A stretch of DNA of 27,279 nt, taken from the IMG/VR virus record IMGVR_UViG_2541047774_000009. One strand, given 5' to 3'. A program made the position numbers and the translations under genes. Source of the stretch: a virus (Duplodnaviria > Heunggongvirae > Uroviricota > Caudoviricetes). This document shows positions 7,824-26,231 of this stretch, piece after piece (the first letter of the stretch is position 1; every line of letters begins with the position of its first letter). The notes beneath the pieces were generated by a model. It worked only from the letters and a program-made list of their open reading frames with translations, did no database searches and was not told where the DNA came from.

Positions 7824-8049
7824 TACTGCCCTCCTCCCCAGGAAAAGCATTTCATTCTTTTCTCATTAATCGTTACTGGAGAGAAGGCGGGAAAAAGCCA
7901 GCTCTTTGGCCCTAAATAACAGCATGGCTTCAGTCCATACAGAATCTGATTTTCCAGCTCACATAATAACCAGATGATGCAGTTGCAAAATCTGGCAACA
8001 TCGGATTATTATGCGCCTGTGAAAATTTCTTCACGTTTTATTCCTTGCC

Positions 8050-8077
8050 GCCCGTGCCTCCCAGCGCGGGCTTTTTT
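8050..8077 (+). terminator. Plus-strand intrinsic terminator-like hairpin with T6 run
   Basis: GCCCGTG...CGCGGGC stem (one G-U pair) followed by TTTTTT at 8072-8077. Confidence 0.4.
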
Positions 8078-8081
8078 ATCC

Positions 8082-8107
8082 AAAAAATACCCCTCCGGAG
8101 AGGGGTA
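8082..8107 (-). terminator. Minus-strand intrinsic terminator (candidate tR'-like)
   Basis: Perfect 8-bp stem TACCCCTC/GAGGGGTA (8088-8095/8100-8107) with 4-nt loop, followed on the minus strand by a U6 run (plus-strand AAAAAA 8082-8087). Confidence 0.5.
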
Positions 8108-8396
8108 TCATACAAGGGGATGACCATGATGCATGGTGCCGGGTGCCTCCCGGTGAGTCCGGCATCAGCATACGAACCCGCGATTATCCCAGAACTGACT
8201 GCTGATTCGCCCCGCCGCTTAGGGGGATTCACCATGCGTTTTTTTATTTACAAACTCTTCGCCAGACAAACAACCATTAACTGGCTGAATTGTGAGGTAT
8301 TTCAATTTTTAGAAAACTGACCAACCTCCGCTTATACGCCGGGCATGGAGCGGATACAAAAAAGCCCCGCAAAAGCAGATCAGAAGGATTCGTTGT

Positions 8397-8436
8397 AAAA
8401 AAAAAGCTGTCAGATTATCGCGCTAATCTGACAGCT
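8397..8436 (-). terminator. Minus-strand intrinsic terminator downstream of methyltransferase gene
   Basis: Perfect 12-13 bp stem GCTGTCAGATTA/TAATCTGACAGC (8406-8417/8424-8435), 6-nt loop, followed on the minus strand by a U9 run (plus A-run 8397-8405). Confidence 0.6.
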
Positions 8437-8677
8437 ACAGCAGGTATCCAAAAACATGGGTGGAAACAATAAGTGAGTTAAGAAGACACGGTGTCGGATT
8501 TTTACCGATGAGCCGTTGGCGTGGTCAACCGTGACTCGCTTGTATCAACGATGAATTAATGAAGCCAATCCTTTGCAGGCTATGTACAACCCACCACATC
8601 AGCCCTGCTGCATTGCAGGATACACTGTATCTGTAATCATTATACGGCACAGACATCCCACCAATAATTGAATTAAT

Positions 8678-9769
8678 TCACAAAATTGTATTTGCTGATA
8701 ACATACTGATTTCCTGGATGGTCTGATTAAACCGCTCTGTCTCAAGCTCAACACCTAACGCCCGACGCCCCAGCGCCATTGCTGCTTTTATTGTGGAACC
8801 GGATCCCATAAAGAAATCAGCAACCAGATCGCCGGGTCGACTACTGGCATTGATTATTTGCCTGAGCATATCCGCCGGTTTCTCACACGGATGTTTACCC
8901 GGGTAGAACTGAACGGGTTTATGCATCCAGACATCGGTATAAGGCACGGAGACTGATACGGAGAAATAGCGCCGGAGAGATTTAAACTCATCCAGCAATT
9001 CAGAATATTTGCGATTCAGTGAATCATAAGATGCCACCAACTGGTGGTGTGGTTGTTCCAGTTGTTGTTCCTGAAACTTCTCTGCCGCTATACGGGAAAA
9101 CAGTGCCTGTAACTTCCGGTAGTCAGCCTCATTCGGCAACTGCCACTGACTGGCACCAAACCAGTGGGAAACCATATTTTTCTTACCTGTGGCTTCGGCA
9201 ATTTGTTTTGCCGTTATACCCAGTTCGGCACGAGCATCCCTGAAATACGATATCAGCGGTGCCATTATGTGCTGTTTGAGTTCCCTTTCTTTTGCCGCAT
9301 AGCCGTCACTTTTGCCGCGATATGGCCCCTGGTAATGTTCAGCAAACAGAACGCGCTCTGTGGCAGGAAAATATGCGCGCAGACTTTCTTTATTACACCC
9401 ATTCCAACGTCCGGACGGCTTCGCCCAGATGATATGGTTAAGCACGTTGAAACGTTCACGCATCATGATCTCAATATCAGATGCCAGGCGATGCCCACAG
9501 AACAGGTAAAGGCTTCCGGCTGGTTTCAGTACCCGCCAGAACTGGGCCAGACAGTGGTCCAGCCACTTCAGGTAATCTTCGTCCCCTTTCCACTGATTGT
9601 CCCAGCCGTTGGGCTTCACTTTGAAGTACGGCGGATCGGTAACAATCAGATCAATGGAGTTATCAGGCAGGGACTGAATAAAATGCAGGCAATCAGCGTT
9701 GATTAAATCAACACTGTTTATTTTTACAGTATTTTCATGGATCAGTAAGCGTAACTCTGGTAGGCTCAC
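8678..9769 (-). CDS. Orphan DNA methyltransferase, beta-class N6-adenine/N4-cytosine type (363 aa)
   Basis: Motif IV DPPY near N-terminus (LIVTDPPYF) and AdoMet motif I near C-terminus (DFFMGSGST): circularly permuted beta-class order; GTG start at 9769; no adjacent endonuclease gene. Confidence 0.8.
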   Translation of the reverse strand: MSLPELRLLIHENTVKINSVDLINADCLHFIQSLPDNSIDLIVTDPPYFKVKPNGWDNQWKGDEDYLKWLDHCLAQFWRVLKPAGSLYLFCGHRLASDIEIMMRERFNVLNHIIWAKPSGRWNGCNKESLRAYFPATERVLFAEHYQGPYRGKSDGYAAKERELKQHIMAPLISYFRDARAELGITAKQIAEATGKKNMVSHWFGASQWQLPNEADYRKLQALFSRIAAEKFQEQQLEQPHHQLVASYDSLNRKYSELLDEFKSLRRYFSVSVSVPYTDVWMHKPVQFYPGKHPCEKPADMLRQIINASSRPGDLVADFFMGSGSTIKAAMALGRRALGVELETERFNQTIQEISMLSANTIL

Positions 9770-9888
9770 TCTGCTTTTGCGCTAAAGCAGTGGGCCGTGG
9801 TTCGCTTGTGACAAGTAAGCATGAGCGAATGGCTGGCAGGTGCTACCAACACCCACCAGCCGCCCATTTTCACAGCAGGAAACCGCCA

Positions 9889-10092
9889 TTACTGGCAGCG
9901 TCTGAATTTATTCCCGTACCCGCCGTTATCCTTCGCCAGACCCGCCAGAACTAACTGAGTCAGTATTAACTGGCACCGGGCTTCGCTTACTCCGGTAGTT
10001 CTCGTCATCATGCGTGGCGTTACCCACTTGTCAGCAGGTAAGAAATGAAGGACTGCGGCGGCGGTTTCTGTCATATCTTGCTGTTTTAGCAT
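9889..10092 (-). CDS. Hypothetical small winged-helix-like protein (67 aa from internal ATG; ORF extends to 10116)
   Basis: ORF co-oriented with and 119 nt upstream of the methyltransferase; helix-turn-helix-like segment TPRMMTRTTGVSEARCQLILTQLVLAGL; internal ATG has GAAGGG upstream; no family recognised. Confidence 0.3.
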   Translation of the reverse strand: MLKQQDMTETAAAVLHFLPADKWVTPRMMTRTTGVSEARCQLILTQLVLAGLAKDNGGYGNKFRRCQ

Positions 10093-10411
10093 GTCTTTTT
10101 CCCTTCTGGTTAACATGACATACCAATAACTCTTGTCTAAAAAGCCAGCAAGATAAAAAGTCAGTATTCACGACCACCAGCGTGTTTACTGTGCTGCACC
10201 AAGTTTACAGGTACAAAAAAACCGCTCAGCGGCGGGTTTAAGTTGTGTGGCGAAGTAACCACTCTTAACACAGTAATCTAGAAAATGCGGACCGCGTTAG
10301 TGATTTTTATCTGTTTTTCCATTATTTTTTTGCCACACAGCTTAAAACGAAAAATAAAGCAGGCGTTGCCAAACCTCACGGTGACAGTTGGCTTAGAATG
10401 AGGACATATTT

Positions 10412-11431
10412 TTGGATAAGTTTGATGAGATTCATGTAGACATTGAATCTGAGCAGCAAGCCTTCGATTTGCTTGAAAGCTATCTTGATGGTTATGGTTT
10501 ACCTGACAGTTTAAGTTTCAACGGATGGCCAAACCTTACCATCAGATTAACCGGTGAAAAATTCAACAGATCGCTAACACCTTCAGTTATGAAGGGATTT
10601 GTTGAAATGCAAGCTCAAATCAACAAATCATATGCCCTTGCCAAGTACGGTGTCCCTGACGTCCGCAAACTGACCAAAGAAGAACTTGATGCCCTAGAAA
10701 TAGAAGTTACGGTAGAACAGGGTTCTTCAATAGTAGAAATCAACATTGATGGCTTTTTAACCAAACTCACACAGGAACTTGTTGGTAAAATGAACGCAAC
10801 TGAGATCATGTTTACTGTTCTCGGCGCAGCAGTCATCTGGGGCGGAGTAACAGTATTTAAACGGTTCTTGGACAACCGTAAAGATATTCGCCTTGCAGAA
10901 ATTGCTAAGGATGGAGAGAAAGAACATCTCCGGACTATGCAGATCATGAGCGAGCAAGAAACTAAACGCCTGCGGGTTATTTCAGAAATGATTGCGGAAA
11001 AACCACTTCTCGATAACATGGACCGTATGTCGTATGACGCTAAAACCCAAATGGTCAAATCCTTTGTGCGTTCAGATAACGCTCAAATTGATGGCGTTAC
11101 TATTGATTCTGAAATGGCGAAAGAGTTGGTTACGAATGCTCGTAGACGTTCATCAGAAATGAGGATTGATGGTATTTACCGAATTGAAGAAGTCAATAAT
11201 ACTGACCCAGAGAGTTTCAAAGTTAAGGTCCGACGCGTAGATACCGACCAACGTCTAACCTGCGTAGTTCAGGATGTTTTCCTTGATGAATCCGGAAACA
11301 AAGAAGCATTGCAGCGAGCTGAGTGGGAAAGAAAGCCTGTACATTTGAGCATTAACGCAAAACACGTCGATGGTGACATTAAGTCAGCAGTAATTCTCTA
11401 TGTTCGAGATGTGGAACAAAAGCCCGAGTAA
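10412..11431 (+). CDS. Hypothetical membrane-anchored protein (339 aa, single central TM helix), lower-GC moron convergent with late genes
   Basis: TTG start with GAGGA 7 nt upstream; one hydrophobic helix (IMFTVLGAAVIWGGVTVF, residues about 133-150) separating two soluble domains; stop codon sits in the loop of a hairpin shared with the convergent Q gene; no catalytic motif recognised. Confidence 0.6.
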   Translation: MDKFDEIHVDIESEQQAFDLLESYLDGYGLPDSLSFNGWPNLTIRLTGEKFNRSLTPSVMKGFVEMQAQINKSYALAKYGVPDVRKLTKEELDALEIEVTVEQGSSIVEINIDGFLTKLTQELVGKMNATEIMFTVLGAAVIWGGVTVFKRFLDNRKDIRLAEIAKDGEKEHLRTMQIMSEQETKRLRVISEMIAEKPLLDNMDRMSYDAKTQMVKSFVRSDNAQIDGVTIDSEMAKELVTNARRRSSEMRIDGIYRIEEVNNTDPESFKVKVRRVDTDQRLTCVVQDVFLDESGNKEALQRAEWERKPVHLSINAKHVDGDIKSAVILYVRDVEQKPE

Positions 11432-11438
11432 TCGGGCT
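11417..11438 (-). terminator. Hairpin terminator immediately downstream of Q (shared with convergent 339-aa gene)
   Basis: 7-bp stem AGCCCGA/TCGGGCT (11421-11427/11432-11438) with GTAA loop; on the minus strand followed by TTTTGTT. Confidence 0.5.
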
Positions 11439-11445
11439 TCAATAA

Positions 11446-11823
11446 TCAATCTTTAATTTCGGGGTCCATCTCTAGACTAATTTCCAGCATCGATAGGCAG
11501 CCATCAATAAACCCCTCAGCCATCTGTATCTCAATGCGTATTAGTTTCTCATCCTTTTTACGAGCCTTGGCGAGCTTTCTTTTAGAGATACCGTATAGGT
11601 AATGGGCAACAAGAAGCGAATGTTCGTCCGGCCTTTTTTGCCTTAGACGAGCAAGACAACCTTCAATAATTAATGCATCACTATCTGAACATGCCTGACG
11701 TGTTTTGCTTGTATAGGGAAGAAGCCCTTTAAACCCAGCAGCTATAGGAGAATAGTCTACTCCTGAACTATCACTCGCCGCCCATGCTCCCCAACGATCC
11801 AGAACCATTTGAATATCACGCAT
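11446..11823 (-). CDS. Late-gene antiterminator Q, phage-82/QuuD type (125 aa)
   Basis: MRDIQMVLDRWGAWAA...IAAGFKGL...C.D.DA.II.GC.ARL...LL..YY...KAEG.I.G.L..L.I.LEMD pattern matching QuuD/Q82 family; GGAGA RBS before ATG 11823. Confidence 0.8.
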   Translation of the reverse strand: MRDIQMVLDRWGAWAASDSSGVDYSPIAAGFKGLLPYTSKTRQACSDSDALIIEGCLARLRQKRPDEHSLLVAHYLYGISKRKLAKARKKDEKLIRIEIQMAEGFIDGCLSMLEISLEMDPEIKD

Positions 11824-11840
11824 CAACTTTCTCCACAAAA

Positions 11841-12836
11841 TCAGGCCAGCACGCCAATTGCCAGCGCACGATCGATAAAACGAAATATCAGCTCCAGCTG
11901 GGAGCCATACTTCTCTTCAAATGCCACGGTATCCGCATGCAGCTCGTCGTGATGCTTTCTGCACAAAGGCAACACAAAGAGGTCATGCGCTTTTGTACCC
12001 ATTCCCCCCTGACCGTGGCCTATCAGGTGGTGGGGATCATCAGCAGGCTTTCCACAACATGCACACGGCTGTGTCTTAACCCAGCGCGTGTACTTTTCAT
12101 TAACCCAGCGGCGACGTTTTGGGCGTAACATAAAAGACTCCGGCGACTCCGGATCCACTTTCAGCGCCAGCACCTTTTTCGCCTTATCCTGGATGATGCT
12201 GGTGGCAGGAACCGAAGGCACAAGGTCACTTTCCCGGGTGACAGACGGCACAACAGGCTTCGGTAATCTCAGTGCCTTACGGGCTGCACTTTCCGGTAAG
12301 GCATCCGCCAGGTCATTACGAATCAGCCACCAGCACAGTTCCGGCATTGTCACAACGTGACTGTCATCAAAACCGAGATCCCGACGCACAACAGACAACA
12401 CCCAGCGGGCACAGTTATCCGTTGCCATTGATTCCAGCCGTTCCGTGAACTGATCGCGCAGCTGGTTATCGCAGTGCCAGCACAGACGGATTGCGCCCGG
12501 CGCGTGTCGCATTGTTGTCATGTTCTCGCTGTGCCAGTCGGAATGAGGCCACTGGCAGCCTTTTTCACGAAGTAACCAGCTTTCAAGACATTCCACGCCA
12601 CCAGCACGACGGATCACTGCCTCATTGCGGAACACGGCCCGAACGACAGGATCATCCGCCAGCGGTTGTGATGCCGCCGGAACGGCACCACTGGCAAAAG
12701 ATGAATAACGTTCCGGCTCAGGCTCCAGCAGGACACGCCCCTGCATAAACAGGGGCATCAGCTCTGAACCAGGTCTGAACAATACGATCCCCATACGCGG
12801 GGCAATTTCAGGGGTCAGTAGTGCTCTCACAGTCAC
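11841..12836 (-). CDS. DUF968-family phage protein with C-terminal HNH-like motif (331 aa, start uncertain)
   Basis: C-terminal cysteine/histidine cluster CACCGKP...HHLIGHGQGGMGTKAHDLFVLPLCRKHHDELH typical of DUF968 nin-region proteins. Confidence 0.65.
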   Translation of the reverse strand: MTVRALLTPEIAPRMGIVLFRPGSELMPLFMQGRVLLEPEPERYSSFASGAVPAASQPLADDPVVRAVFRNEAVIRRAGGVECLESWLLREKGCQWPHSDWHSENMTTMRHAPGAIRLCWHCDNQLRDQFTERLESMATDNCARWVLSVVRRDLGFDDSHVVTMPELCWWLIRNDLADALPESAARKALRLPKPVVPSVTRESDLVPSVPATSIIQDKAKKVLALKVDPESPESFMLRPKRRRWVNEKYTRWVKTQPCACCGKPADDPHHLIGHGQGGMGTKAHDLFVLPLCRKHHDELHADTVAFEEKYGSQLELIFRFIDRALAIGVLA

Positions 12837-12837
12837 C

Positions 12838-13647
12838 TCAATGAACGGTATCGAGCAGCTTTAACAGCTCAGGGAATCGGGATTCGAAGAAATGCGGCTG
12901 CGTCTCGCGCGGATTTGCAGGACTGGTGATGTTCTTGCCGAACATGCAGCCTTTCGCTGTCAGCGACCAGAATTTTTTGATGTTGTTAATCGCGGTACGG
13001 CTGTATCGTTCGCGCTGCTCGACGATCCCCAGCTTCACCATCTGGTGATATGCCTGATTAGCCGTAAGGCGGATACCATACTGTTTCAGCAGTGCACTCA
13101 GCGACAGCGTGGGGCGACTTGAGCCATCAGGCGCGTCAGCAGGAGCATCAATGGCATAGCGCGGTGCCAGATTCGGTAAGCCAACAGCCTCCTGGAGTTT
13201 CTGACAGGCACCAAGCACTGATGAGTTAGACAGGTTTAACTCCCTGCGCATAAAGTCCAGCAGAATCACACCAGCCTGCATCTTGTCAGCAGCCTGCCCG
13301 GATAATTTTTCCGGTGCGCTGGTTACCATATCGAAAGTACGGATCACCTTCAGATGGAATGACGGGCTGATCCACATTGCATAGGCATACACCAGTTCCT
13401 TGCAGACATACGTTCCCCGTTCATTTCCCCCATGAATCACACTCACCGGGTCAACACCCAAATTCTGGGTGTTGGTCAATTCATGAACAAGCTCAACAGT
13501 TTGTTGGCTGGAAAGAAACTTTCCTGGCTCCTTGGTTCTGGCATTTGCACCAGATGCTACTGCTGCGCGATGCAGATCGTTCAGGCTGTAACGCCCATAA
13601 GCATCACGACGAACTTCAATACCATCAATGACCATCAGATTATTCAT
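12838..13647 (-). CDS. KilA-N domain protein (269 aa)
   Basis: N-terminal IDGIEVRRDAYGRYSLNDLHRAAV... resembles KilA-N DNA-binding domain; GAGGAG RBS. Confidence 0.65.
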   Translation of the reverse strand: MNNLMVIDGIEVRRDAYGRYSLNDLHRAAVASGANARTKEPGKFLSSQQTVELVHELTNTQNLGVDPVSVIHGGNERGTYVCKELVYAYAMWISPSFHLKVIRTFDMVTSAPEKLSGQAADKMQAGVILLDFMRRELNLSNSSVLGACQKLQEAVGLPNLAPRYAIDAPADAPDGSSRPTLSLSALLKQYGIRLTANQAYHQMVKLGIVEQRERYSRTAINNIKKFWSLTAKGCMFGKNITSPANPRETQPHFFESRFPELLKLLDTVH

Positions 13648-13666
13648 ACTTCGTTTCTCCTCTTAA

Positions 13667-14056
13667 TCAGGCGGCTGCACCCGCCGTTTTCTCGTACTTA
13701 CTGATAGTGATCTCGACCTTCCCTTTCGGGATAACCGGTCCCCACTCCACCAGCATTCTTTTCACCTGTCTGTCGTCTTCCCACACACCCGCGTGGGTCA
13801 GGGCGTCAAACAGCGCCTTGTTATAGTTGTCCAGATCACGGATCCGGTTATCCGGCGGAAACAACACGATCTCCACTGAAGCAGGTGCCGACGTTGGTTT
13901 CGGCAGACGACGTAACTGCTCAACTATTGCTGCGCACGCCGCGCTCTGGAATTTTCGCCCCGCCGCGCTTATCAGGCTCTTACCAGCAAACGCCCCTTTG
14001 TTGGGGTGTCGCCAGTACGTGTTCACGCTGGGCGGAAAAGGCAGGATCAGCTTCAT
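13667..14056 (-). CDS. rusA: Holliday-junction resolvase RusA (129 aa)
   Basis: MKLILPFPPSVNTYWRH... with conserved RDLDN acidic motif, characteristic of RusA family; start overlaps upstream stop (ATGA). Confidence 0.85.
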   Translation of the reverse strand: MKLILPFPPSVNTYWRHPNKGAFAGKSLISAAGRKFQSAACAAIVEQLRRLPKPTSAPASVEIVLFPPDNRIRDLDNYNKALFDALTHAGVWEDDRQVKRMLVEWGPVIPKGKVEITISKYEKTAGAAA

Positions 14057-14379
14057 ACTTTCAGGTCCCTCTCATGTAACCAGTGGGTTGCACGCAGCCT
14101 TGCGTTTTCCTCACCGGCAAGCAGTGCGCGGATAATCCCGACCGCCTCGCTGTCGTCGTCCTTCACCGCGGTATGAAGCGTTATCCCCCGGGCCACGCCA
14201 CGCTTTATCGTGATGACGCCTTTTTTCTCCAGTGCGCGAAGATGCTCCACCGCTGCATTCACCGAACGGTATCCCAGCATGGTTGCCACCTCCTGATTGG
14301 TTGGCGGGAAGCCACGTTCTTTCTGATAAGAAATCAGCATATCCAGCACCTGCTGCTGGCATTGAGTTAACGTCGTCAT
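14053..14379 (-). CDS. LexA DNA-binding-domain-like protein (108 aa)
   Basis: LTQCQQQVLDMLISYQKERGFPPTNQEVATMLGYRSVNAAVEHLRALEKKGVI resembles the LexA N-terminal winged HTH; no peptidase domain. Confidence 0.55.
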   Translation of the reverse strand: MTTLTQCQQQVLDMLISYQKERGFPPTNQEVATMLGYRSVNAAVEHLRALEKKGVITIKRGVARGITLHTAVKDDDSEAVGIIRALLAGEENARLRATHWLHERDLKV

Positions 14380-15029
14380 GCCGCCATCTCCCTGACCAGT
14401 TTTTCTGCCTGCTGGCGAACCTGCGCCAGAAACGCCTCACCACATGCCTCAAGTTCATCGCGCCCGATGTAGCTGATTGCCGGGCCCTTCCAGGTCTTGT
14501 CGAAAACAGCAATAGCACCAGCGAAGAAAGCGCCTGTCGGCACCTGCTTCTCGTCCTTCGGGATAAACCAGGCAGGCAGTTCAAAACCAATACGCCCGCG
14601 AATAAAAGCAATATGATCTGCATCTTCCGGCCACCACACTTCGCTGGTGGCAGCTTTGATCAGGAAAACATAGCGTCCGCCCTTATCACGCATGGCACTG
14701 GCATGCTTCATGATGTAACGCATGCCGGTGATGTATTGCCCTTCATGCTGACTGGCGCGGCTGTACGGGGGATTACCAAAGGCAGCACCTTTAAGCTCCG
14801 CAAGACGTTCAGACCAGTCATGCGCCAGCGCGTTGTCTTCCGCAGTGTAATAAGCGGCACATTTGGCGTTATCACCATCAGTGAACAGATCCAGAACAAA
14901 CGGGCCAAACAGGGTGTTAATTCCCCAGAAAATGTTATCCGGCGTGCGCCACTGATCGCCCACTTCCTTCAGTTCATGGGCTGGTTTGTTCCGCAGCTCC
15001 ACCAGCGCCTGCCAATATTTATTACTCAT
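14376..15029 (-). CDS. Phage Dam-like DNA N6-adenine methyltransferase (217 aa from ATG 15029)
   Basis: NPPY catalytic motif (FGNPPYSRA); ATG at 15027-15029 overlaps upstream stop (TAATG); no endonuclease partner. Confidence 0.7.
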   Translation of the reverse strand: MSNKYWQALVELRNKPAHELKEVGDQWRTPDNIFWGINTLFGPFVLDLFTDGDNAKCAAYYTAEDNALAHDWSERLAELKGAAFGNPPYSRASQHEGQYITGMRYIMKHASAMRDKGGRYVFLIKAATSEVWWPEDADHIAFIRGRIGFELPAWFIPKDEKQVPTGAFFAGAIAVFDKTWKGPAISYIGRDELEACGEAFLAQVRQQAEKLVREMAA

Positions 15030-15523
15030 TAAGCCCCCACGTAATTCCCTGACAGATACCACTCTTCACCCGATGCAGCGCGCTTGCTGCTTTTCCGTAA
15101 GCACCGCTCACGACGCGCCAGAAAATTGTTTCGTTCTGGCTGGGAGTGGCTTTCACGGAATGCCGCCATCCACACCGTTGCAGCACGACGGTATAAGCCC
15201 CTGGACTCCAGTTCTTCCGCCTGGCGGGTCAGGCACAAAATCACCCGGGGATCGTTAGTGCCGACATAGAAATTGCGCACAGGTCTGGTTTCACGAACTG
15301 GTTGTGGTTCCGGCTCCTGCGCTCTCTCAGTCAGGCGCGGGAAATGTCTGCGTGTATCTCCTTCACAACGGTGAGCCACACGCCCACTCTGACGTAACTT
15401 GCTTGCTGACTGCAGAACGTGCAGCCGTGAGTAACCTGCAAAAGCATCCGCAATGTCTCCGGAAGTACACCCCGGATGGGCTTCAATGAATTTCTGAACT
15501 TCATTCAAAAGACTCATGATCAC
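15029..15523 (-). CDS. Hypothetical regulatory protein, N-terminal wHTH-like region and C-terminal PerC-like motif (164 aa)
   Basis: C-terminal LESRGLYRRAATVWMAAF resembles the PerC/Pch activator signature as recalled from memory; assignment tentative. Confidence 0.45.
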   Translation of the reverse strand: MIMSLLNEVQKFIEAHPGCTSGDIADAFAGYSRLHVLQSASKLRQSGRVAHRCEGDTRRHFPRLTERAQEPEPQPVRETRPVRNFYVGTNDPRVILCLTRQAEELESRGLYRRAATVWMAAFRESHSQPERNNFLARRERCLRKSSKRAASGEEWYLSGNYVGA

Positions 15524-16338
15524 CCCCTGAATCCTGCCGGGATCTGGCTGTAGTCCACGTTGTCGTAACTGGCTTTGAAGTACGGGTCCTCGCGTCTGGC
15601 TGCAGATACCGCAGGAACTTCCCAGGATTCTTCGAAATGACGATCCGGACCAAAGAACGTGACAGCCTGTTTCACAAATTGTGTGCCGCTGTTACCCATC
15701 GCAGATACCCAGCCCGCGTAGCGTTTCACACCTTCCAGCATGGTTTCGGGTTTTACCCCCTCATTCAAACGAGCTTTCCAGGCTTTGAAGGCTGCAGATT
15801 TTGAATTGCCACCAGCACGTTTGGGGTATGCCAGCCATGCCTGCTCAAACTCCGGAGAGTATTCCGGTCGGTTTGAACGAACTCGCACGGACTCATCAGC
15901 AGATGCACCAACAGCTATTGGTTCATTGACTGGTTCTTTGACTGGTTCAAAAGAGTGACTGGTTCTGGGTGAATCTCCTGCACCACCCCCTGGTGCAACT
16001 CCTGCACTACCTGGTGAATTTGCTGCACCAGATAGTGAATTATTTGCACTACCCCCTAGTGAATCTCCTGCACCATCAAGATGAAGGAGATAGATATTAC
16101 TTGAGTTACCTTTTTCACCTTTCCGGGTGACTTTTTTTACCAGCCCGGAATCACAAAGGGCCGCAATATGATTCATCACAGAACGTTTGCTAATCTCGCA
16201 CTGGTCAGCAATATGCTGGTAGCTGGGCCAGCACTCACCCTGATCGCTGGCATTATCAGCCAGCTTGATCAGAACCAGTTTTCGCAATGGATTACCCACT
16301 CGAATTTTCATCGCTTTAACCATCAGCTCCATACTCAT
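15520..16338 (-). CDS. Replication initiation protein, O-like with HTH_36-type N-terminal domain (272 aa)
   Basis: N-terminal VGNPLRKLVLIKLADNASDQGECWPSYQHIADQCEISKRSVMNHIAALCDSGLV typical of phage replication-initiator wHTH; iteron array inside the Gly/Ser/Ala-rich linker coding region; GGAGG RBS. Confidence 0.7.
   Translation of the reverse strand: MSMELMVKAMKIRVGNPLRKLVLIKLADNASDQGECWPSYQHIADQCEISKRSVMNHIAALCDSGLVKKVTRKGEKGNSSNIYLLHLDGAGDSLGGSANNSLSGAANSPGSAGVAPGGGAGDSPRTSHSFEPVKEPVNEPIAVGASADESVRVRSNRPEYSPEFEQAWLAYPKRAGGNSKSAAFKAWKARLNEGVKPETMLEGVKRYAGWVSAMGNSGTQFVKQAVTFFGPDRHFEESWEVPAVSAARREDPYFKASYDNVDYSQIPAGFRG
15925..16080. repeat. Iteron array (candidate replication origin) inside the initiator gene
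   Basis: Three TGACTGGTTC repeats (15927-15965) followed by five about 19-bp direct repeats of consensus TRGTGAATYTCCTGCACYA (15966-16075) at about 21-24 bp spacing. Confidence 0.6.
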
Positions 16339-16571
16339 GCTGCACCTCCGAGATGCTTCATGTTTTTTCCGGAGCGAAAGGCTATAAGCGGCATACTGAC
16401 GCGGTAATTACGGCCCAGCGGTTCACAAATCACCTTCTGACATTCACGGTCAACCAGGCTGACACGTAGAACATGCCCTGCTGGCGTGGTGTACCACTGC
16501 CCAACTGTGGGTGTTGATATTTTTTTACGCTGAAATAAACGGTAAATGTTGAGGAGCAACGGATTAAGCAT
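16335..16571 (-). CDS. Hypothetical protein (78 aa)
   Basis: ORF with start and stop overlapping neighbouring genes (translational coupling); no family recognised. Confidence 0.4.
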   Translation of the reverse strand: MLNPLLLNIYRLFQRKKISTPTVGQWYTTPAGHVLRVSLVDRECQKVICEPLGRNYRVSMPLIAFRSGKNMKHLGGAA

Positions 16572-17400
16572 GACGATGCCCTCCGCTGATATTCAGGAGA
16601 CGGTGAATATGAAAATTAGCCTTATCCGCCAGACGAATACGTTCAGCTTGCAAGTTAAGAAGGGTTTCTACCAGAACCTGATGTGCCTGCGGATCCGAAA
16701 GAGTTACCTTGCGCAGAGCACGTAGTGCAGTTGTTACATAACTGAGTTTATGTAAGTCTTCATCATTCAGACGAGTGAGGGCTGGGACAGTAGCCATGAT
16801 GGCAGCCTCCGTATGCAATGGATAACTTCCACCACCGGAAACGCCAATTTCGCTGGTGGTGAACTGAGCAGGGTTGGCGTAACCGGCGCATACGGAAACC
16901 GGCGCACCTTTCGGTGCCCCCACCCAGCCCACCATAATTTGGGTATAGCTGAGTTGTAGCAACAAAAAAGACGCTAACGCGCCAATTGTCGCCGTATGCA
17001 ATTCCAGGACGCCAATCCCGGCACCCGCTTTATAAGGTGCCTGAACAGTGTAACGTCCCGGAATGGCAGAATCAATGTGCTGGTGGTCCTTCACACTCAA
17101 CAAAATCACGCCTGAATTTCCACAAAGGGCTAAAGCACTCATGCGGGTAGTCTTTGCGAAGATAGATAACGCGCTGTGTTTCTGGCTCCCAACGAATAAC
17201 ATGAACATAAAGTCCTCTTCCGTCACGAAACCAGCGGTTAAGTTCCTGCACAACTCGCCCCCCACAGTCAGGTAAAGTTCTCTGTGGTTACTTACAGCCA
17301 GGAGATTTGGTAATCTGCATTCATGCCGTAACAACAGGTGTTCAGCGACGCTGACCACCAGCTGTTGCGACAAACGGTTATTTGCCGTTAAACTGTTCAT
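16564..17400 (-). CDS. Hypothetical protein (278 aa)
   Basis: Long ORF tightly packed in early-right operon with ATGA overlap to upstream gene; no family recognised. Confidence 0.5.
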   Translation of the reverse strand: MNSLTANNRLSQQLVVSVAEHLLLRHECRLPNLLAVSNHRELYLTVGGELCRNLTAGFVTEEDFMFMLFVGSQKHSALSIFAKTTRMSALALCGNSGVILLSVKDHQHIDSAIPGRYTVQAPYKAGAGIGVLELHTATIGALASFLLLQLSYTQIMVGWVGAPKGAPVSVCAGYANPAQFTTSEIGVSGGGSYPLHTEAAIMATVPALTRLNDEDLHKLSYVTTALRALRKVTLSDPQAHQVLVETLLNLQAERIRLADKANFHIHRLLNISGGHRHA

Positions 17401-17960
17401 GCGTTAGTTTCTCCACAGACACAAAACGCCACGACGCCCGGAGCTGCACACTCGCGGGCGTCACTCTTTTCTGGAGCGCAAAAGATTTTGTAGACCAGTG
17501 CTGCATGCTCCTGGAGCTTCGAAATTGACAGATACAACTCATCATTAATTGCTGTCTGCTCGTGTGGCTCCACTATCCCATCTTCGATTGCCGAACGAAT
17601 CTGCTTTGAGTAACTCCCGATCTGTTCGATGACTTCCAGCAGGCGCTGGTTTATATCGGCGTTCTCTACTTCCTCAATTTCAGGAAGCGATACAAACACC
17701 CCACCAGCAGACTGTGCGACAGCATCCGCAATGTAGTGAGTGCCAGCCGCGCGCTGTAAAATCATTGCCCATCCCAGCGGGAAAATCTGATCGCCATCTG
17801 CACGAAGGCGGTTGAATAAAGCGTTCTCTGTTACATCCAGCCACTCAGCAGCTTCAGCGTAACCCCCCGGCAACGCCGCGATAGTTTTTCTGACAGCTTT
17901 CACGTACCACTCAGGCTGTTTTTCTACTTTCCAGTGATGCTTACCCACGGTTAGCCTCAT
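17397..17960 (-). CDS. Putative CII-like/YdaT-like early regulatory protein (187 aa)
   Basis: Second gene of the rightward early operon, 31 nt after cro-like gene; assignment by position and loose resemblance only. Confidence 0.35.
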   Translation of the reverse strand: MRLTVGKHHWKVEKQPEWYVKAVRKTIAALPGGYAEAAEWLDVTENALFNRLRADGDQIFPLGWAMILQRAAGTHYIADAVAQSAGGVFVSLPEIEEVENADINQRLLEVIEQIGSYSKQIRSAIEDGIVEPHEQTAINDELYLSISKLQEHAALVYKIFCAPEKSDARECAAPGVVAFCVCGETNA

Positions 17961-17991
17961 CGTTCTGTGGTTAAAAATTGAAGGTGTTCTG

Positions 17992-18192
17992 TTAATCTTT
18001 CGGATAGATATCCGGTCTTAAGTCAGATTTCGTAATTGCACCTGACGTGCATTGCTCAAGTTTTTTAGCCAGCACAAAACTGGCTTTTTTATAACCATTG
18101 AAAACCAGCCGTAAGTAGCCTGGTGTTGAGCCAACTTTTCCGGCCAACTCGCCCTGCTGTTCTTTGGTTAAAGAGTCCCAATACGCTTTCAT
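17992..18192 (-). CDS. cro: Cro-like HTH regulator (YdaS-like, 66 aa)
   Basis: Start ATG 18190-18192 with GGAGG 9 nt upstream; MKAYWDSLTKEQQGELAGKVGSTPGYLRLVFNGYKKAS... HTH; divergent from cI across an operator-containing 90-bp region. Confidence 0.7.
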   Translation of the reverse strand: MKAYWDSLTKEQQGELAGKVGSTPGYLRLVFNGYKKASFVLAKKLEQCTSGAITKSDLRPDIYPKD

Positions 18193-18282
18193 ACAATATG
18201 TACCTCCGGTATACATATTACATGATTGAGATGAACCTTCAAGATACTTGTACCTTATCGGTACAAAGGTTTTAATTTCTTT
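18193..18282. promoter_or_regulatory. Immunity-region operator/promoter region (OR-like) between cro and cI
   Basis: Perfect inverted repeat TTGTACCTTATCGGTACAA (18248-18266) and related site ATATGTACCTCCGGTATACATAT (18196-18218), both with TGTACC/GGTACA half-sites. Confidence 0.6.
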
Positions 18283-18957
18283 ATGAAAACAGTCCATGAC
18301 ATCCGGCGGTCTAACGCCAGAAAACTGAGAGATGGTGTTGGCGGGAATTCTTCCTTTGCCACCATGATTGATCGCGAGCCAACCCAGACCAGCAGGTTTA
18401 TGGGAGATGGTGCTACTAAAAATATCGGTGACAGCATGGCGCGGCACATCGAAAAATGTTTCGACCTGCCTGTCGGATGGCTTGATCAAGAACACCAGAC
18501 CACGAACATCACAAAAAAACCTGATGTTTCAATCACTAACAAACAAATAACGTTAGTCCCTGTCATATCATGGGTACAGGCCGGAGCATGGAAAGAAGTT
18601 GGCTATTCTGAGGTTGATTTGAGCACAGCAGAAACTTACCCCTGCCCTGTACCCTGTGGCGAAATGACTTATATCTTGCGGGTGATTGGTGATTCAATGA
18701 TTGATGAGTACCGCCCGGGAGACATGATTTTTGTTGATCCTGAAGTCCCTGCCTGCCACGGTGACGACGTTATTGCATTGATGCACGATACAGGCGAAAC
18801 CACCTTCAAGCGGTTGATAGAAGATGGAACACAGCGTTACCTCAAAGCATTAAACCCAAACTGGCCTGAACCTTACATTAAGATCAACGGTAATTGCTCT
18901 ATAATTGGTACAGTGATTTTCTCAGGAAAACCAAGAAGATACAAAATAAAGACCTAA
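18283..18957 (+). CDS. cI: CI-like prophage repressor with C-terminal S24 (LexA-type) peptidase domain (224 aa)
   Basis: C-terminal autocleavage domain with GDSM serine motif and downstream Lys (RVIGDSMIDEY...FKRL); divergent from cro. Confidence 0.85.
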   Translation: MKTVHDIRRSNARKLRDGVGGNSSFATMIDREPTQTSRFMGDGATKNIGDSMARHIEKCFDLPVGWLDQEHQTTNITKKPDVSITNKQITLVPVISWVQAGAWKEVGYSEVDLSTAETYPCPVPCGEMTYILRVIGDSMIDEYRPGDMIFVDPEVPACHGDDVIALMHDTGETTFKRLIEDGTQRYLKALNPNWPEPYIKINGNCSIIGTVIFSGKPRRYKIKT

Positions 18958-18970
18958 TCATTATTTATGA

Positions 18971-18993
18971 ACCTGCTTCGGCAGGTTTTTTTA
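18971..18993 (+). terminator. Intrinsic terminator after cI
   Basis: ACCTGC-TTCG-GCAGGT hairpin followed by TTTTTTT. Confidence 0.6.
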
Positions 18994-18996
18994 TAC

Positions 18997-19030
18997 TTGA
19001 CAATGTACTTTTGGGATACATAATGTATCC
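18997..19030 (+). promoter_or_regulatory. pL-like promoter with overlapping operator palindrome
   Basis: -35 TTGACA (18997-19002), 16-nt spacer, -10 CATAAT (19019-19024); perfect 17-bp palindrome GGATACATAATGTATCC (19013-19029) overlapping the -10. Confidence 0.5.
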
Positions 19031-19624
19031 AAAAGAAACATGCAACAGGCAAGATTCAAACAAAGTTTGGTTGTAACACGGCGTATGGCACATGCGTCGT
19101 TAGCGGTCTGGAGACGTTAAAGGGGACAATCCACTCCTTGCTCGGGCAAACAAACCAGGTAGCCGGAATGTGCAAGTCAATGATGATGCTGATAAGACGC
19201 CTAACCAGCGTGGCGATTCGGTTTGACGCCTGGGAAGAGACCAGGGTGCAACGATAAGAGCATTTATGGAGCCGAGACAAAGTGTGGCGCCGAACTGGCT
19301 AAGTGCTCTCAGCGTTGTGGTAATCCGCGAAATGGCGCGGCGGTAAGTATGGCGGGGTTAGTCTTTCCCCGTTGAGGACACCGGATTGTCAGGTTGACCA
19401 TACGCCTGAGTGACAACCCCACCACAACAGCCACTGCTTTGGCGGTACCAGTTTGTACACTTGCTTCCGGCTGGTACCGCTCTTTTTACAAAACAGAGAA
19501 GAGCATCACCGGACGACGGGCTCATAACCCAATCCATCCGGGCGGCTGCCACCGCAGGTGTTCTTCTCTGTTTTGTGGAGAAACCAACCGGCCTTGCAGG
19601 GTCGATATGATGAGGAGCAGCAAA

Positions 19625-19987
19625 ATGGCTAGCGAACGCAGTACTGATGTGCAGGCATTTATCGGGGAGCTGGACGGCGGCGTATTTGAAACCAAAATCG
19701 GCGCAGTTCTCAGTGAAGTCGCTTCCGGTGTGATGAACACGAAAACCAAAGGGAAGGTCTCGCTCAACCTGGAAATCGAACCGTTTGATGAGAACCGTGT
19801 GAAAATCAAACACAAACTCTCATATGTTCGCCCGACTAACCGCGGGAAAATTTCCGAAGAAGACACCACCGAAACGCCGATGTATGTCAATCGCGGTGGT
19901 CGCCTGACTATTCTGCAGGAAGACCAGGGACAATTACTGACTCTTGCCGGTGAACCTGACGGAAAACTCCGCGCAGCAGGTCGTTAA
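19625..19987 (+). CDS. YfdP-like phage protein (120 aa)
   Basis: ATG 19625 with GAGGAG 7 nt upstream; precedes yfdQ/yfdR homologues in the same order as CPS-53 yfdP-yfdQ-yfdR. Confidence 0.55.
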   Translation: MASERSTDVQAFIGELDGGVFETKIGAVLSEVASGVMNTKTKGKVSLNLEIEPFDENRVKIKHKLSYVRPTNRGKISEEDTTETPMYVNRGGRLTILQEDQGQLLTLAGEPDGKLRAAGR

Positions 19988-20052
19988 TATCGTTCTTAAT
20001 TAACCGATTATTTATCTCATCACTGAATATCTTTATATAGTGAGGACTTATT

Positions 20053-20877
20053 ATGTCTCAGAACTTAGACGCAACCGCAATTAATCAAATCCATGCCCTT
20101 ATTTCTGCTCAGGGTGTTAATGAAATTATCAGTAAGATTGGTGCCGATGCTGTGGCATTGCCTGAGAATTTCCGCATTCATGATCTGGAAAAATTTAATT
20201 TAAATCGCTTCCGTTTCCGTGGTGCGCTTTCCACTGCCAGCATCGATGACTTTACCCGTTATTCTAAAGATCTTGCAGATGAAGGCACCCGCTGCTTTAT
20301 CGATGCTGATAATATGCGAGCAGTCAGTGTGCTTAACCTGGGTACTATTGATGAACCAGGTCACGCAGATAACACCGCCACTCTCAAACTGAAAAAGACA
20401 GCACCGTTCTCTGCCCTGTTGTCTGTTAACAGCGAGCGTAACTCCCAGAAGTCACTGGCAGAATGGATTGAAGACTGGGCCGACTATCTTGTGGGCTTTG
20501 ATGCTAATGGTGACACCATTCAGGCAACAAAAGCGGCTGCGGCGGTCCGTAAAATCACGATTGAAGCAAACCAGACTGCTGATTTTGAAGATAATGACTT
20601 CAGCGGCAAACGCTCCCTGATGGAGTCTGTCGAAGCGAAGACCAAAGACATTATGCCAGTGGCATTTGAGTTTAAATGCGTTCCGTTTGAAGGTCTGAAA
20701 GAACGTCCGTTTAAATTACGCCTCAGCATTATCACTGGCGATCGTCCTGTACTGGTTCTGCGCATTATTCAGCTGGAAGCGGTGCAGGAAGATATGGCTA
20801 ACGAATTTCGTGATCTGCTTGTTGAGAAATTCAAGGACAGCAAAGTAGAAACCTTTATTGGGACTTTCACCGCCTGA
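20053..20877 (+). CDS. yfdQ: YfdQ-like DUF2303 protein (274 aa)
   Basis: [22 protein letters not shown]... 274 aa, same length and N-terminus as recalled for E. coli YfdQ; GAGGA RBS. Confidence 0.7.
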
Positions 20878-21005
20878 TTTCATTACTGCAAATGCCCCTG
20901 CGGGGGCATTTATGGAAACGTAATTGACTCAATAATCGCCTGAAGGCGAGGGTTTTCTTTAACCAAAATTCAGCGCGATGCAGCGCATATAACGTGGAGA
21001 ATAAA

Positions 21006-21530
21006 ATGTCATTTATTAAAACTTTTTCCGGGAAACATTTTTATTATGACAGGATAAATAAAGACAACATCGATATTAACGATATCGCGGTTTCCCTTTC
21101 AAATATCTGTCGCTTTGCCGGCCATCTTTCACACTTCTACAGCGTCGCCCAACATGCGGTGCTTTGCAGCCAGCTGGTACCGCAGGAATTTGCTTTTGAA
21201 GCGTTAATGCATGATGCAACAGAAGCGTATTGCCAGGACATCCCGGCTCCACTGAAACGCCTTCTTCCTGACTATAAACGGATGGAAGAAAAAATAGACG
21301 CCGTAATCCGTGAGAAATACGGGTTACCCCCGGTTATGAGTACGCCCGTGAAATATGCCGATCTCATCATGCTGGCAACCGAACGCCGCGATCTCGGGCT
21401 TGATGATGGCTCTTTCTGGCCCGTACTGGAAGGTATCCCGGCAACAGAGATGTTCAAAGTTATTCCACTGTCGCCAGGCCATACCTATGGGATGTTTATG
21501 GAACGCTTTAAAGAGTTAACTGAGTCGTAA
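21006..21530 (+). CDS. yfdR: HD-domain 5'-deoxynucleotidase YfdR-like (174 aa from ATG 21006)
   Basis: MSFIKTFSGKHFYYDRINKDNIDINDIAVSLSNICRFAGH... with HD motif (LMHDATEAY); GGAGA RBS 5 nt before ATG. Confidence 0.75.
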   Translation: MSFIKTFSGKHFYYDRINKDNIDINDIAVSLSNICRFAGHLSHFYSVAQHAVLCSQLVPQEFAFEALMHDATEAYCQDIPAPLKRLLPDYKRMEEKIDAVIREKYGLPPVMSTPVKYADLIMLATERRDLGLDDGSFWPVLEGIPATEMFKVIPLSPGHTYGMFMERFKELTES

Positions 21531-21638
21531 AAATCAGCACGTACGAATTCAAACTCTGCCATAAAAGAACATATAAGTAATTTATTAACATATAGATATA
21601 GGTTATATTACAAATTGAACAATTATTGGAGAGCAACA

Positions 21639-22505
21639 ATGAATCAAAATCCATTCTCATTCTATGACTTTCTTGGATATTTAATACCAGGTGGTTTTTT
21701 TATCCTATTAATGTATTTCTGTGGTTTGACATTCGATCTAGATATTGTTATTGACTTAAGTGAATTGCTCAGAGGTCAAAGTCAAATCTTTGGCATTTTG
21801 AACTACGCTTCAATAGTTATTATATCTTATATAGCTGGACATTTTATTTCTATCACGTCAGCATTTTTTATCGAAAAACACATGAATAAAGAATTAGGAT
21901 ATCCTTCCAAATATCTATTTAAAAAATTGATAGATACCTCAGAAAGCATTTGTAGCCCATCATGCGATGAGAGAAGCGCTGATAAAAAAACAAAAATAAA
22001 GAATCGCATAATCAAATGCGTATTATGCCCAATAATACTATGGGATTTTATAACACAAAAACTATGTTATTCTCAATCTCTACCATTTCATTTAGCTAAT
22101 ACAACATGGTTAATGATCAAAGAAGGTTATGAGAAAAAGTTCATAACAAATCGCCAATTATTACAAGATAAAAACGGACTTGATGATGATCTCTTCAGAT
22201 TGGCATATCATTATGTTTATGAGTTTTCAAAACAACATCAAACAAAAATTCAAAACTATGTTGCATTATATGGTTTTTGCAGAAACATATGTTTAATCTT
22301 TATAATTTCATTTTGGGTATCAGTTCCAACCTTTATTTATCGATTATGTACTCATAGTGATTATCTTTATAGTTTACTTTCAATAATGCTTAGCTTTTTC
22401 TTCGTCTATGTTTTCTATGTTGGTTTTGTTAAATTTTATAGAAGATATACTTTAGAAGTATTAATGGCATTTGCTGTACTTCAAAGTAACGACACTATTC
22501 GTTAA
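21639..22505 (+). CDS. Hypothetical multi-pass membrane protein (288 aa), AT-rich moron
   Basis: GGAGAG RBS before ATG 21639; at least five hydrophobic helices (e.g. FFILLMYFCGLTF, IFGILNYASIVIISYIAGHFISITSAFFI, CRNICLIFIISFWVSVPTFIY, LLSIMLSFFFVYVFYVGFV); very low GC relative to flanking phage DNA. Confidence 0.6.
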   Translation: MNQNPFSFYDFLGYLIPGGFFILLMYFCGLTFDLDIVIDLSELLRGQSQIFGILNYASIVIISYIAGHFISITSAFFIEKHMNKELGYPSKYLFKKLIDTSESICSPSCDERSADKKTKIKNRIIKCVLCPIILWDFITQKLCYSQSLPFHLANTTWLMIKEGYEKKFITNRQLLQDKNGLDDDLFRLAYHYVYEFSKQHQTKIQNYVALYGFCRNICLIFIISFWVSVPTFIYRLCTHSDYLYSLLSIMLSFFFVYVFYVGFVKFYRRYTLEVLMAFAVLQSNDTIR

Positions 22506-22546
22506 TAATGTTGCTCCCGTGTGCAGACGGGATAATGGAGAAACGT

Positions 22547-22753
22547 ATGCTGAACCTCGATTGTGTTCCTATCTCAACTTATTGCAAAGAAACTGGCGAA
22601 ACTCCTGAAGCAATAAACAAACGTGTACAGCGCGGTGTTTGGCGTGAAGGTGTTCAGGTTTTAAAGGTTGAAGGCGTTAAGGAGAGGTGGATTGATCTTA
22701 GTGAGGTTGCAAAATGGGCCAGACAAAACTGCTCAAACTACCGCGCGGCGTAA
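22547..22753 (+). CDS. xis: Excisionase-like protein (68 aa; alternative start 22535)
   Basis: Small basic ORF immediately upstream of and overlapping int by 40 nt; GGAG RBS; resembles prophage excisionase-like proteins. Confidence 0.6.
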   Translation: MLNLDCVPISTYCKETGETPEAINKRVQRGVWREGVQVLKVEGVKERWIDLSEVAKWARQNCSNYRAA

Positions 22754-23889: not shown

Positions 23890-24139
23890 CCTTGAGCAAG
23901 GTAAAGCATGTTATTCAAAGAAGCCTATTTCGTTCAAAACGAGAGGTCCTCCACAAATCCACGCTTGAATAGGTATTCTTTACAATTATGAGCATACCCC
24001 TTATAGATTTATTCCATTGAAAAATGCCATCCCCCTGATAAAACAACAGTATTATTGTTTCAAAAAAAATGTTATAAGTAAATTCACTTACATGTAACGT
24101 TTAAATTTTTGTTTAAGAAGTATAAATTAGAGGGATAAA

Positions 24140-26062: not shown

Positions 26063-26152
26063 ATATATATTTCCTTAAAAAGGATACGTGAAGTACACGA
26101 AGCATGCGAGAAATAAAATAAAAAAATAAAAATCAATAAATTAAAAACAAAT

Positions 26153-26184
26153 GGACGCTGGTTCAACTCCCGCCAGCTCCACCA
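26153..26184 (+). other. ssrA: 3'-terminal fragment of ssrA (tmRNA) forming an attachment-site junction
   Basis: GGACGCTGGTTCAACTCCCGCCAGCTCCACCA matches the E. coli tmRNA 3' end (T-arm and CCA) with one G-to-T difference in the T-stem; upstream sequence is AT-rich and unrelated to the ssrA body. Confidence 0.8.
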
Positions 26185-26231
26185 AAATTCTCCATCGGTG
26201 ATTACCAGAGTCATCCGATGAAGTCCTAAGA

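Follow-up and report, generated by a model that had tools for sequence, protein, structure and literature searches.

The PerC family has been described as a group of ~10 kDa proteins (PMC5293775), to which belong PerC of enteropathogenic Escherichia coli (EPEC), encoded in the plasmid perABC operon (pMAR7), and PchA, PchB and PchC, encoded by prophages of enterohaemorrhagic E. coli. These are single-domain proteins of 89–104 amino acids (aa), and activation of the LEE1/ler region in the enterocyte effacement locus (LEE), or relief of H-NS silencing in another way, is shown for PerC and PchA/B/C only. Pch relieves the silencing exerted by H-NS, StpA and Hha and lowers the occupancy of H-NS (PMC4764244). 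Among the single-domain Pch proteins, ler activation is limited to group 1 (PchA/B/C), and PchD and PchE do not activate it (PMC5931665). The ANRs (AraC negative regulators; Aar of enteroaggregative E. coli, Rnr of EPEC and Citrobacter rodentium) are stand-alone proteins below 10 kDa, which bind AraC-type regulators, H-NS and Ler and act negatively (PMC4983702, PMC10148876). Here we describe yfdN, a gene in the virus record IMGVR_UViG_2541047774_000009 of IMG/VR (27,279 nucleotides, the whole stretch being referred to below as the window), which encodes a two-domain relative of PerC and Pch and lies in the early operon of an E. coli lambdoid prophage.

The open reading frame (ORF) in question is yfdN, a conserved early gene of the lambdoid phages of E. 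coli, Shigella and Salmonella. Its DNA is 99.4% identical to genes annotated as yfdN, and the match is full-length, of high identity and set among the same flanking genes as the annotated yfdN, which places it in the yfdN orthologous group. PHROG 1324 ('transcriptional activator'; phrog_1324) is matched over residues 2–163 with an E-value of 1.2e-77. The assignment to the PerC family is correct and was already public, since RefSeq labels exactly this ORF 'yfdN: PerC family transcriptional regulator' and Uhlich et al. name the homologue of strain K-12 'the K12 unique PerC homologue', which they deleted from their ler reporter strain as a precaution (PMC5931665). The K-12 gene lies in the cryptic prophage CPS-53/KpLE1; its product belongs to the same family, with 95–99% protein identity and the same length and annotation, and its neighbours are those of the window copy (a replication gene upstream, dam downstream). 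Whereas CPS-53 is cryptic in K-12, the prophage of the window looks intact over the stretch examined: bases 8000–26186 are 99.6% identical to a prophage of E. coli strain GF47, and no pseudogenes are annotated in that copy.

YfdN is 94–98% identical at the protein level in the phages SfV, SfII, SfIV, mEp460, Ayreon and in Stx2c-converting phages, and 68% identical in ST64B. By megablast, yfdN was found in 2668 of 5426 complete E. coli genomes (49%), with up to four copies per genome. An exhaustive search of 1.84 billion representative proteins with a hidden Markov model (HMM) returned only 154 clusters with E ≤1e-3, a mixture of two-domain proteins of 138–165 aa and single-domain PerC-type proteins. 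The family thus has few members and belongs mainly to mobile elements of enterobacteria; carriage on mobile elements of Enterobacteriaceae is common to PerC, Pch and YfdN. In the literature YfdN appears only in screens: its overexpression gave a glycogen phenotype, the region with yfdN was enriched in a filamentation screen, and the homologue of strain CFT073 is entered at 12.6-fold in a nitric-oxide response table, alongside neighbouring prophage genes (PMC5320621). In a computed interactome YfdN falls into a cluster labelled 'negative regulation of transcription'. A literature search on SfV and ST64B gave nothing relevant on yfdN.

The gene and the parts of its product, numbered from the GTG codon at 15523, are as follows.

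15029–15523, minus strand: yfdN ORF, with a TAA stop at 15031–15029; 164 aa counted from the GTG at 15523; the same ORF is annotated in RefSeq.
15332–15517, minus strand: winged helix-turn-helix domain, residues 3–64, from the AlphaFold2 model and Foldseek; isoelectric point 9.4, with a basic wing GRVAHRCEGDTRRHF.
15251–15331, minus strand: Pro/Glu-rich linker, residues 65–91; residues 65–84 are predicted to be disordered, with a predicted local distance difference test score (pLDDT) <50.
15074–15250, minus strand: PerC-type three-helix core, residues 92–150 (helices 92–107, 111–124 and 128–150); isoelectric point 11.3, pLDDT about 92.
15071–15226, minus strand: Pfam PerC match (PF06069), residues 100–151.
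15158–15211, minus strand: motif LESRGLYRRAATVWMAAF, residues 105–122, spanning the last part of helix 1 of the core, the turn that follows and helix 2.
15032–15073, minus strand: C-terminal tail SGEEWYLSGNYVGA, residues 151–164, modelled with low confidence and predicted to be disordered, and conserved.

The replication initiator gene upstream ends in a TGA that overlaps with the GTG at 15523 (GTGA), and the stop codon of yfdN shares one base with the ATG of the downstream dam gene (TAATG). The real start is probably the ATG at 15517, giving a product of 162 aa that begins MSLL..., because homologues (down to ~20% identity) usually start with Met-Ser-Leu at the position aligned with this codon (alignment A3), and because an AGGGGG is found 7–12 nucleotides 5' of it. 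Two plus-strand ORFs, 14232–15032 (266 aa) and 14986–15258 (90 aa), overlap dam and yfdN in antisense; neither annotation nor homology supports either of them, and they are probably by-products of the codon bias on the coding strand.

A preliminary description of this ORF had pointed out a PerC-like motif in the C-terminal half and the looks of a winged helix in the N-terminal half, and both observations are borne out. The quoted motif, LESRGLYRRAATVWMAAF, is indeed present in the minus-strand ORF and aligns with LEEKGFYRRAADRWAEIM of EPEC PerC. The HMM of the PerC family (PF06069) matches YfdN with an E-value of 7.8e-09 and 36.1 bits, above the gathering score of 22.6; the match is partial, covering positions 5–56 of the 90 in the model, whereas authentic PerC and Pch are matched over positions 1–89/90 with 143–149 bits. 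Divergent two-domain relatives of YfdN score 34.1, 29.6, 28.5, 19.7 and 12.2 bits against the same model. For direct comparison, perC was taken from EPEC plasmid pMAR7, in which it follows perA and perB, together with a Pch-type gene encoding 104 aa. BLASTP aligned YfdN 100–145 with PerC 6–51 (37% identity over 46 aa, E 1e-06) and YfdN 102–145 with residues 7–50 of the Pch-type protein (41% over 44 aa, E 1e-07). Profile comparison with hhalign, of 19 YfdN-type C-terminal domains against 14 single-domain PerC/Pch proteins, gave a probability of 99.5% and an E-value of 3e-23 over 58 columns. On this evidence, the resemblance between the core of YfdN and PerC/Pch is one of homology and not of chance.

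In respect to single residues, A102, E106, A114, W118 and C141 of YfdN are spaced exactly as A8, E12, A20, W24 and C47 of PerC, and the signature of the core, LE-x2-G-x-YRRAA-x2-W with a downstream R-x3-C, is present. The same Ala/Glu/Ala/Trp/Cys spacing occurs in the ANR protein Rnr, and the predicted three-helix fold resembles the one predicted for a phage ANR; YfdN differs from the ANRs by its added winged helix and tail. The likeness to PerC and Pch is restricted to a core of ~50 residues: the C-terminal half of these proteins (..IKQAV...MG.....FR.Y; Pfam positions 57–90) is absent from YfdN, and a different tail is found in its place. With 164 aa, a winged helix and a linker, YfdN does not fit the description of the family as single-domain proteins of ~10 kDa. 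The gene surroundings also differ, PerC being encoded in the plasmid perABC operon and YfdN in a phage early operon.

In the tail, residues W155, Y156, L157, G159, N160, Y161, V162 and G163 are invariant among close homologues (alignment A2). Among divergent ones (alignment A3) only G159 remains invariant, and the pattern W-x-L-[AS]-G-x-[FY]-V-G is kept at 20–30% identity. Both the two-domain layout and the tail are retained down to ~20–30% identity, and in some proteins of 77–90 aa the core and the tail occur without the winged helix. The conservation of the tail as a by-product of overlap with the downstream gene was considered and rejected, since the overlap with dam is a single base and loci with another gene downstream retain the tail. 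The linker, in turn, is poorly conserved, its length and sequence varying among homologues (gapped columns in alignment A3). Rare singleton fusions were also observed, in which YfdN is joined to the N-terminus of an HTH_36 initiator, to RusA or to Dam (P0026, P0031 and P0019); they look like products of deletion or recombination within the early operon and not like real architectures.

The AlphaFold2 model of YfdN (11-sequence alignment as input) has a mean pLDDT of 76. Its N-terminal domain, with pLDDT of about 90, contains helices at residues 3–15, 21–27 and 33–46 followed by a beta hairpin at 49–62, which is the H1-H2-H3 plus beta-hairpin wing topology, and it is rich in Arg and His at the wing. 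Foldseek against the PDB returned no E-value <0.001 and was used for fold class only. The best single-domain matches were the winged helices of BlaI, MecI, SmtB, ArsR, MarR and PerR, over 60–66 columns with a root-mean-square deviation (rmsd) of about 2 Å; their probability was 1.0 but their E-values were only 0.1–0.5, the domain being short. Curated families of winged helix-turn-helix sequences gave only sub-threshold matches to the N-terminal domain: the NCBIfam model BilQ (MarR-type) reached 19.9 bits (E 4.5e-4) versus a cut-off of 125, and YfdN homologues score 12–19 bits with Penicillinase_R or MarR, also below threshold; for phrog_1687 the E-value was 3e-4. A sequence search of the PDB with whole YfdN gave no match even at E 10, and the PDB contains no experimental structure of a PerC-family core.

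In the rightward early operon yfdN comes first behind the replication genes, the position that ren has in phage lambda. The genes found at the ren position (PHROG 142 and PHROG 1687) encode winged-helix folds with an H-P-G-C motif before helix 2, as in YfdN. In Klebsiella phage RothD a 100-aa winged-helix gene lies directly after P, at the ren position (L045:4508–4810), and its product matches both phrog_142, 'Ren-like exclusion protein' (9.5e-08), and the PHROG of YfdN (6.8e-07). With the profile of the YfdN N-terminal domain, hhalign gave 95.7% for this RothD protein and 31% (E 5e-4) for lambda Ren, and the match of the domain to phrog_142 is weak (E 0.025). Lambda Ren and the other winged-helix proteins of the ren position are single-domain and, unlike YfdN, carry no PerC-type module. 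By sequence comparison, YfdN therefore resembles a fusion between a winged helix of the ren position and a module of PerC type. The identity of the gene and the architecture of its product are, in our view, practically certain.

The neighbours of yfdN in the window are the following two genes.

15520–16338, minus strand: lambda-O-like replication initiator (HTH_36 / DnaD_N), directly upstream of yfdN.
14376–15029, minus strand: phage Dam-type N6-adenine methyltransferase, directly downstream of yfdN.

The placement in an early operon, also part of the preliminary description, is confirmed by the order of the genes. A cro-like gene (ymfT, minus strand) diverges from a cI/LexA-type repressor gene (ymfK, plus strand), and is followed on the minus strand by ymfL (cII-like), a DUF4222 gene, an ash gene and a 78-aa ORF before the initiator, and, after yfdN, by dam, a gene for a LexA DNA-binding domain only, rusA, a KilA-N gene, a DUF968 gene and the antiterminator Q. 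The genes around yfdN abut or overlap, and yfdN appears to be translationally coupled to the initiator and to dam. On the minus strand, the vicinity of yfdN showed neither promoter- nor terminator-like sites in a scan with consensus sequences; promoter-like sites in the scan were fewer than in shuffled sequences, and thus there is no evidence for a promoter of its own. The gene is not a moron, but a part of the repressor-controlled rightward early operon.

The same arrangement is found further afield. The YfdN homologues of the 37 viral contigs examined fall into two divergent subtypes, which share about 34% and 28% identity with the protein of the window. An initiator homologue lies directly upstream of the YfdN homologue in every contig (37/37), with its stop within a few bases of the start. 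The subtypes of YfdN combine with three initiator types in mosaic pairing, with no co-variation. Downstream there is usually an adenine methyltransferase, either Dam (PF05869) or the unrelated MT-A70, and in some loci none; after this slot follow, in the divergent loci, the LexA DNA-binding-domain gene, rusA, an antirepressor gene, a DUF968 gene and Q.

The explanation that we favour is that of an early regulator bound to DNA. YfdN would be made together with the replication and nin genes only after loss of repressor, that is upon induction or infection, or, in cryptic prophages, by leakage. Its winged helix would place it on DNA, the basic core of PerC/ANR type would, as is reported for Pch and the ANRs, disturb complexes of nucleoid proteins or of transcription factors (H-NS/StpA/Hha or AraC-type activators), and the conserved tail could serve as a docking peptide for a partner. 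The expected result would be a local change of transcription on phage DNA, and possibly on host DNA, early in lytic development. Taken as a whole, with identity, architecture and mechanism together, this explanation stands an even chance of being right. The mechanism alone, the perturbation of nucleoid or transcription-factor complexes by a DNA-bound early protein, is offered tentatively, at somewhat below even odds.

A number of observations weigh against this explanation. The searchable literature yielded no experiment testing the activity or function of YfdN, and the mechanism is extrapolated from distant relatives. In the Pch study, H-NS could not be co-precipitated with PchA (PMC4764244). 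The structures compared are predictions, and the E-values of Foldseek are weak for both domains (0.02–0.5), which are short. The connection to the ANRs is likewise limited. The ANR model of NCBIfam (NF033650) matches YfdN over positions 5–51 of 54 with an E-value of 3.6e-05, but with 23.5 bits, below its cut-off of 32 bits. Rnr has no Pfam PerC hit and gives weak TPR matches instead, and direct comparisons of YfdN or PerC with the single Rnr sequence by BLASTP or hhalign were not significant (hhalign probability 1–10%). The pattern shared by PerC and the ANRs is TPR-like, and a part of the resemblance could be structural convergence. Membership of YfdN in the ANR family is not claimed, because of these outcomes with Rnr.

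Nevertheless, the link to the ANRs is a good lead. The same near-full-length match to the ANR model, below the cut-off, is given by PerC (18.2 bits), by Pch (13.6 bits) and by eight short PerC-type proteins (18–27 bits). The pattern A-x3-E-x7-A-x3-W-x22-C is common to YfdN (15074–15250), PerC (L004:2495–2764), Pch (L003:2501–2815) and EPEC Rnr (L042:2631–2864), and its first part is the published ANR signature (PMC4983702). In BFVD, a library of viral protein structures, an Aeromonas phage protein of 60 aa named 'ANR family transcriptional regulator' fits the C-terminal domain of YfdN with a TM score of 0.91 and an rmsd of 0.5 Å (56 columns, 25% identity), both structures being predicted. The shared signature, and the sub-threshold matches that all PerC-type proteins tested give with the ANR HMM, suggest that PerC (PF06069) and ANR (NF033650) may form one superfamily. 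The link between PerC and the ANRs is not drawn in the two ANR papers (PMC4983702, PMC10148876), each of which has PerC a single time, one of them in its reference list. In EPEC strain E2348/69, a Mu-like prophage carries rnr as one of its early genes, behind those for the Mu transposase, an AAA ATPase of MuB type and DUF3164; ANRs, like PerC-type proteins, can thus be encoded by phage early genes.

A broader and doubtful proposal would join PerC/Pch, the ANRs and the C-terminal domain of YfdN into one superfamily of three-helix modules, borne by phages and plasmids and acting on nucleoid and AraC-type regulators, of which YfdN would be the DNA-tethered version (a ren-position winged helix, the module and a docking tail), with which lambdoid phages would, at an early stage of lytic growth, free their own DNA of H-NS-type silencing or re-programme host regulators. 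If this were true, PerC and Pch, as regulators of virulence, would descend by domestication from an ordinary early function of phages.

The kinship with the ANRs also admits a different account of YfdN, in which the C-terminal domain would sequester activators of the AraC/XylS type or proteins of the H-NS family by protein contact alone, so that the net effect would be repression and the label 'activator' would be wrong. The ANR match of YfdN is stronger than that of PerC itself, the superposition on the predicted structure of the phage ANR is close, the signature is shared, EPEC Rnr is also a phage early gene, and the cluster assigned by the computed interactome is one of negative regulation. 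Set against this, the score lies under the curated ANR cut-off, the PerC profile matches far better, the reciprocal tests with Rnr are weak, and the ANRs, as single-domain proteins of <10 kDa, have neither winged helix nor tail. We consider such an anti-activator role unlikely.

The DNA-bound early regulator must also be compared with an accessory role in replication, in which YfdN would replace lambda P or DnaC and help the O-like initiator at the origin, for instance by recruiting the host helicase or by binding the second family of repeats in the following element.

15919–16078, unstranded: origin-like iterons inside the initiator gene, with about five GGTGCAGGAGATTCAC-like repeats 21–24 nucleotides apart, then three to four GAACCAGTCA repeats.

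The iterons fall in the low-complexity linker region of the initiator, a layout as that of the lambda ori inside gene O, and the overlap of the initiator stop with the yfdN start, together with the adjacency in all the divergent viral loci, would suit such a partnership. In addition, P-, DnaC- and DnaB-like genes were not seen between 12838 and 18500 of the window nor in the six divergent loci with ORFs listed (L006, L009, L010, L030, L036 and L041), and the annotation of the two matching E. coli prophages includes none of the three. In phages with relatives of the initiator this place is taken by other genes, a DnaC-like loader and a helicase in phiP27 and P in RothD. YfdN, however, has no similarity to any helicase loader, and both of its domains look regulatory; its subtypes are shuffled among the three initiator types without co-variation. 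Vibrio phage D77, whose initiator is 48% identical, has neither loader nor YfdN (the 108-aa gene that follows its initiator was considered as a possible relative of YfdN and found to be unrelated), and in RothD the related winged-helix gene follows P and does not replace it. Since the whole downstream array is equally syntenic, adjacency alone is weak evidence. A replication accessory is, on balance, quite improbable.

The preliminary description had further proposed that the prophage encodes a PerC/Pch-type activator by which host virulence loci are switched on. Of this, the structural part holds, as YfdN does have a PerC-family core and a winged helix, and the activation of host virulence loci is not supported. 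Working like PerC or PchA/B/C, YfdN would act on loci such as LEE1/ler; this would be in line with the genuine core and its LE-x2-G-x-YRRAA-x2-W signature, with the carriage of yfdN by Stx2c-converting phages, and with the removal of yfdN from the K-12 reporter by Uhlich et al. before Pch proteins were tested on ler (PMC5931665). Only the first ~50 residues of PerC/Pch are shared, however; the missing C-terminal part (Pfam positions 57–90), replaced by the different tail, may be needed for PerC/Pch activity. LEE is not activated by PchD and PchE, both of them far more similar to PerC than YfdN is. The gene ler was found in 690 of the 5426 complete genomes (13%) as compared to 2668 (49%) for yfdN, and so at least three quarters of the yfdN carriers, K-12 having the gene as well, are without the classical target of PerC/Pch. 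Moreover, yfdN lies in the early lytic operon and not in a moron position with its own promoter, and being under control of the repressor it should be silent in a stable lysogen. As a general role, a switch for host virulence loci is unlikely; we do not think that YfdN is a dedicated activator of LEE-type virulence loci, and that it works as PerC or PchA/B/C do has very little probability. From the PerC-family label on yfdN it should not be concluded that a prophage carries a virulence switch, as the likeness stops at the core and the classical target is missing from most hosts.

A counter-exclusion function, by which YfdN would guard the phage against abortive-infection or exclusion systems of resident prophages as Ren does against Rex, is suggested by the ren position of the gene, the weak phrog_142 match and the profile similarity to the RothD protein, itself matched by both PHROGs, but it is most improbable, as YfdN is tied to lambda Ren itself in a weak and transitive way, a PerC-type domain is missing from Ren, no association of YfdN with defence systems came from PADLOC, and the reading predicts little.

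As such, the finding matters little, the gene being already named, filed under the PerC family and present in about half of the complete E. coli genomes. Its use is mainly negative, as a caution about the PerC-family label. It also offers two leads, namely the apparent kinship of the PerC core with the ANRs, which could explain how PerC and Pch, poorly understood mechanistically, act, and the invariable placement of yfdN directly behind the initiator in phages where no helicase-loader gene was seen. They may repay follow-up, because YfdN is abundant and uncharacterised.

Some other genes of the prophage deserve mention. The protein of 108 aa that consists of a LexA DNA-binding domain only (14053–14379, minus strand; PF01726, 69 bits) has no S24 peptidase domain and could be a LexA mimic that is non-cleavable; divergent phages have kept its gene in the second place downstream of yfdN. 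An ORF of 339 aa (10412–11431, plus strand), read in the opposite direction and flanked by Q and the late region, is in a moron-like position; it is hypothetical in RefSeq and has no Pfam or PADLOC match. A hypothetical protein of 296 aa (21615–22505, plus strand), adjoining the integrase (22714–23889), has no Pfam match and shows a weak PADLOC match to Csx27, a membrane protein associated with type VI-B CRISPR (E 2.8e-06). Beyond the integrase, at 24140–26062 on the plus strand, a ParA-type ATPase is followed by two ORFs without a family match. In GF47 this ParA-type block is followed by P2-like ogr and tail genes, which indicates that a second mobile element abuts the lambdoid prophage.

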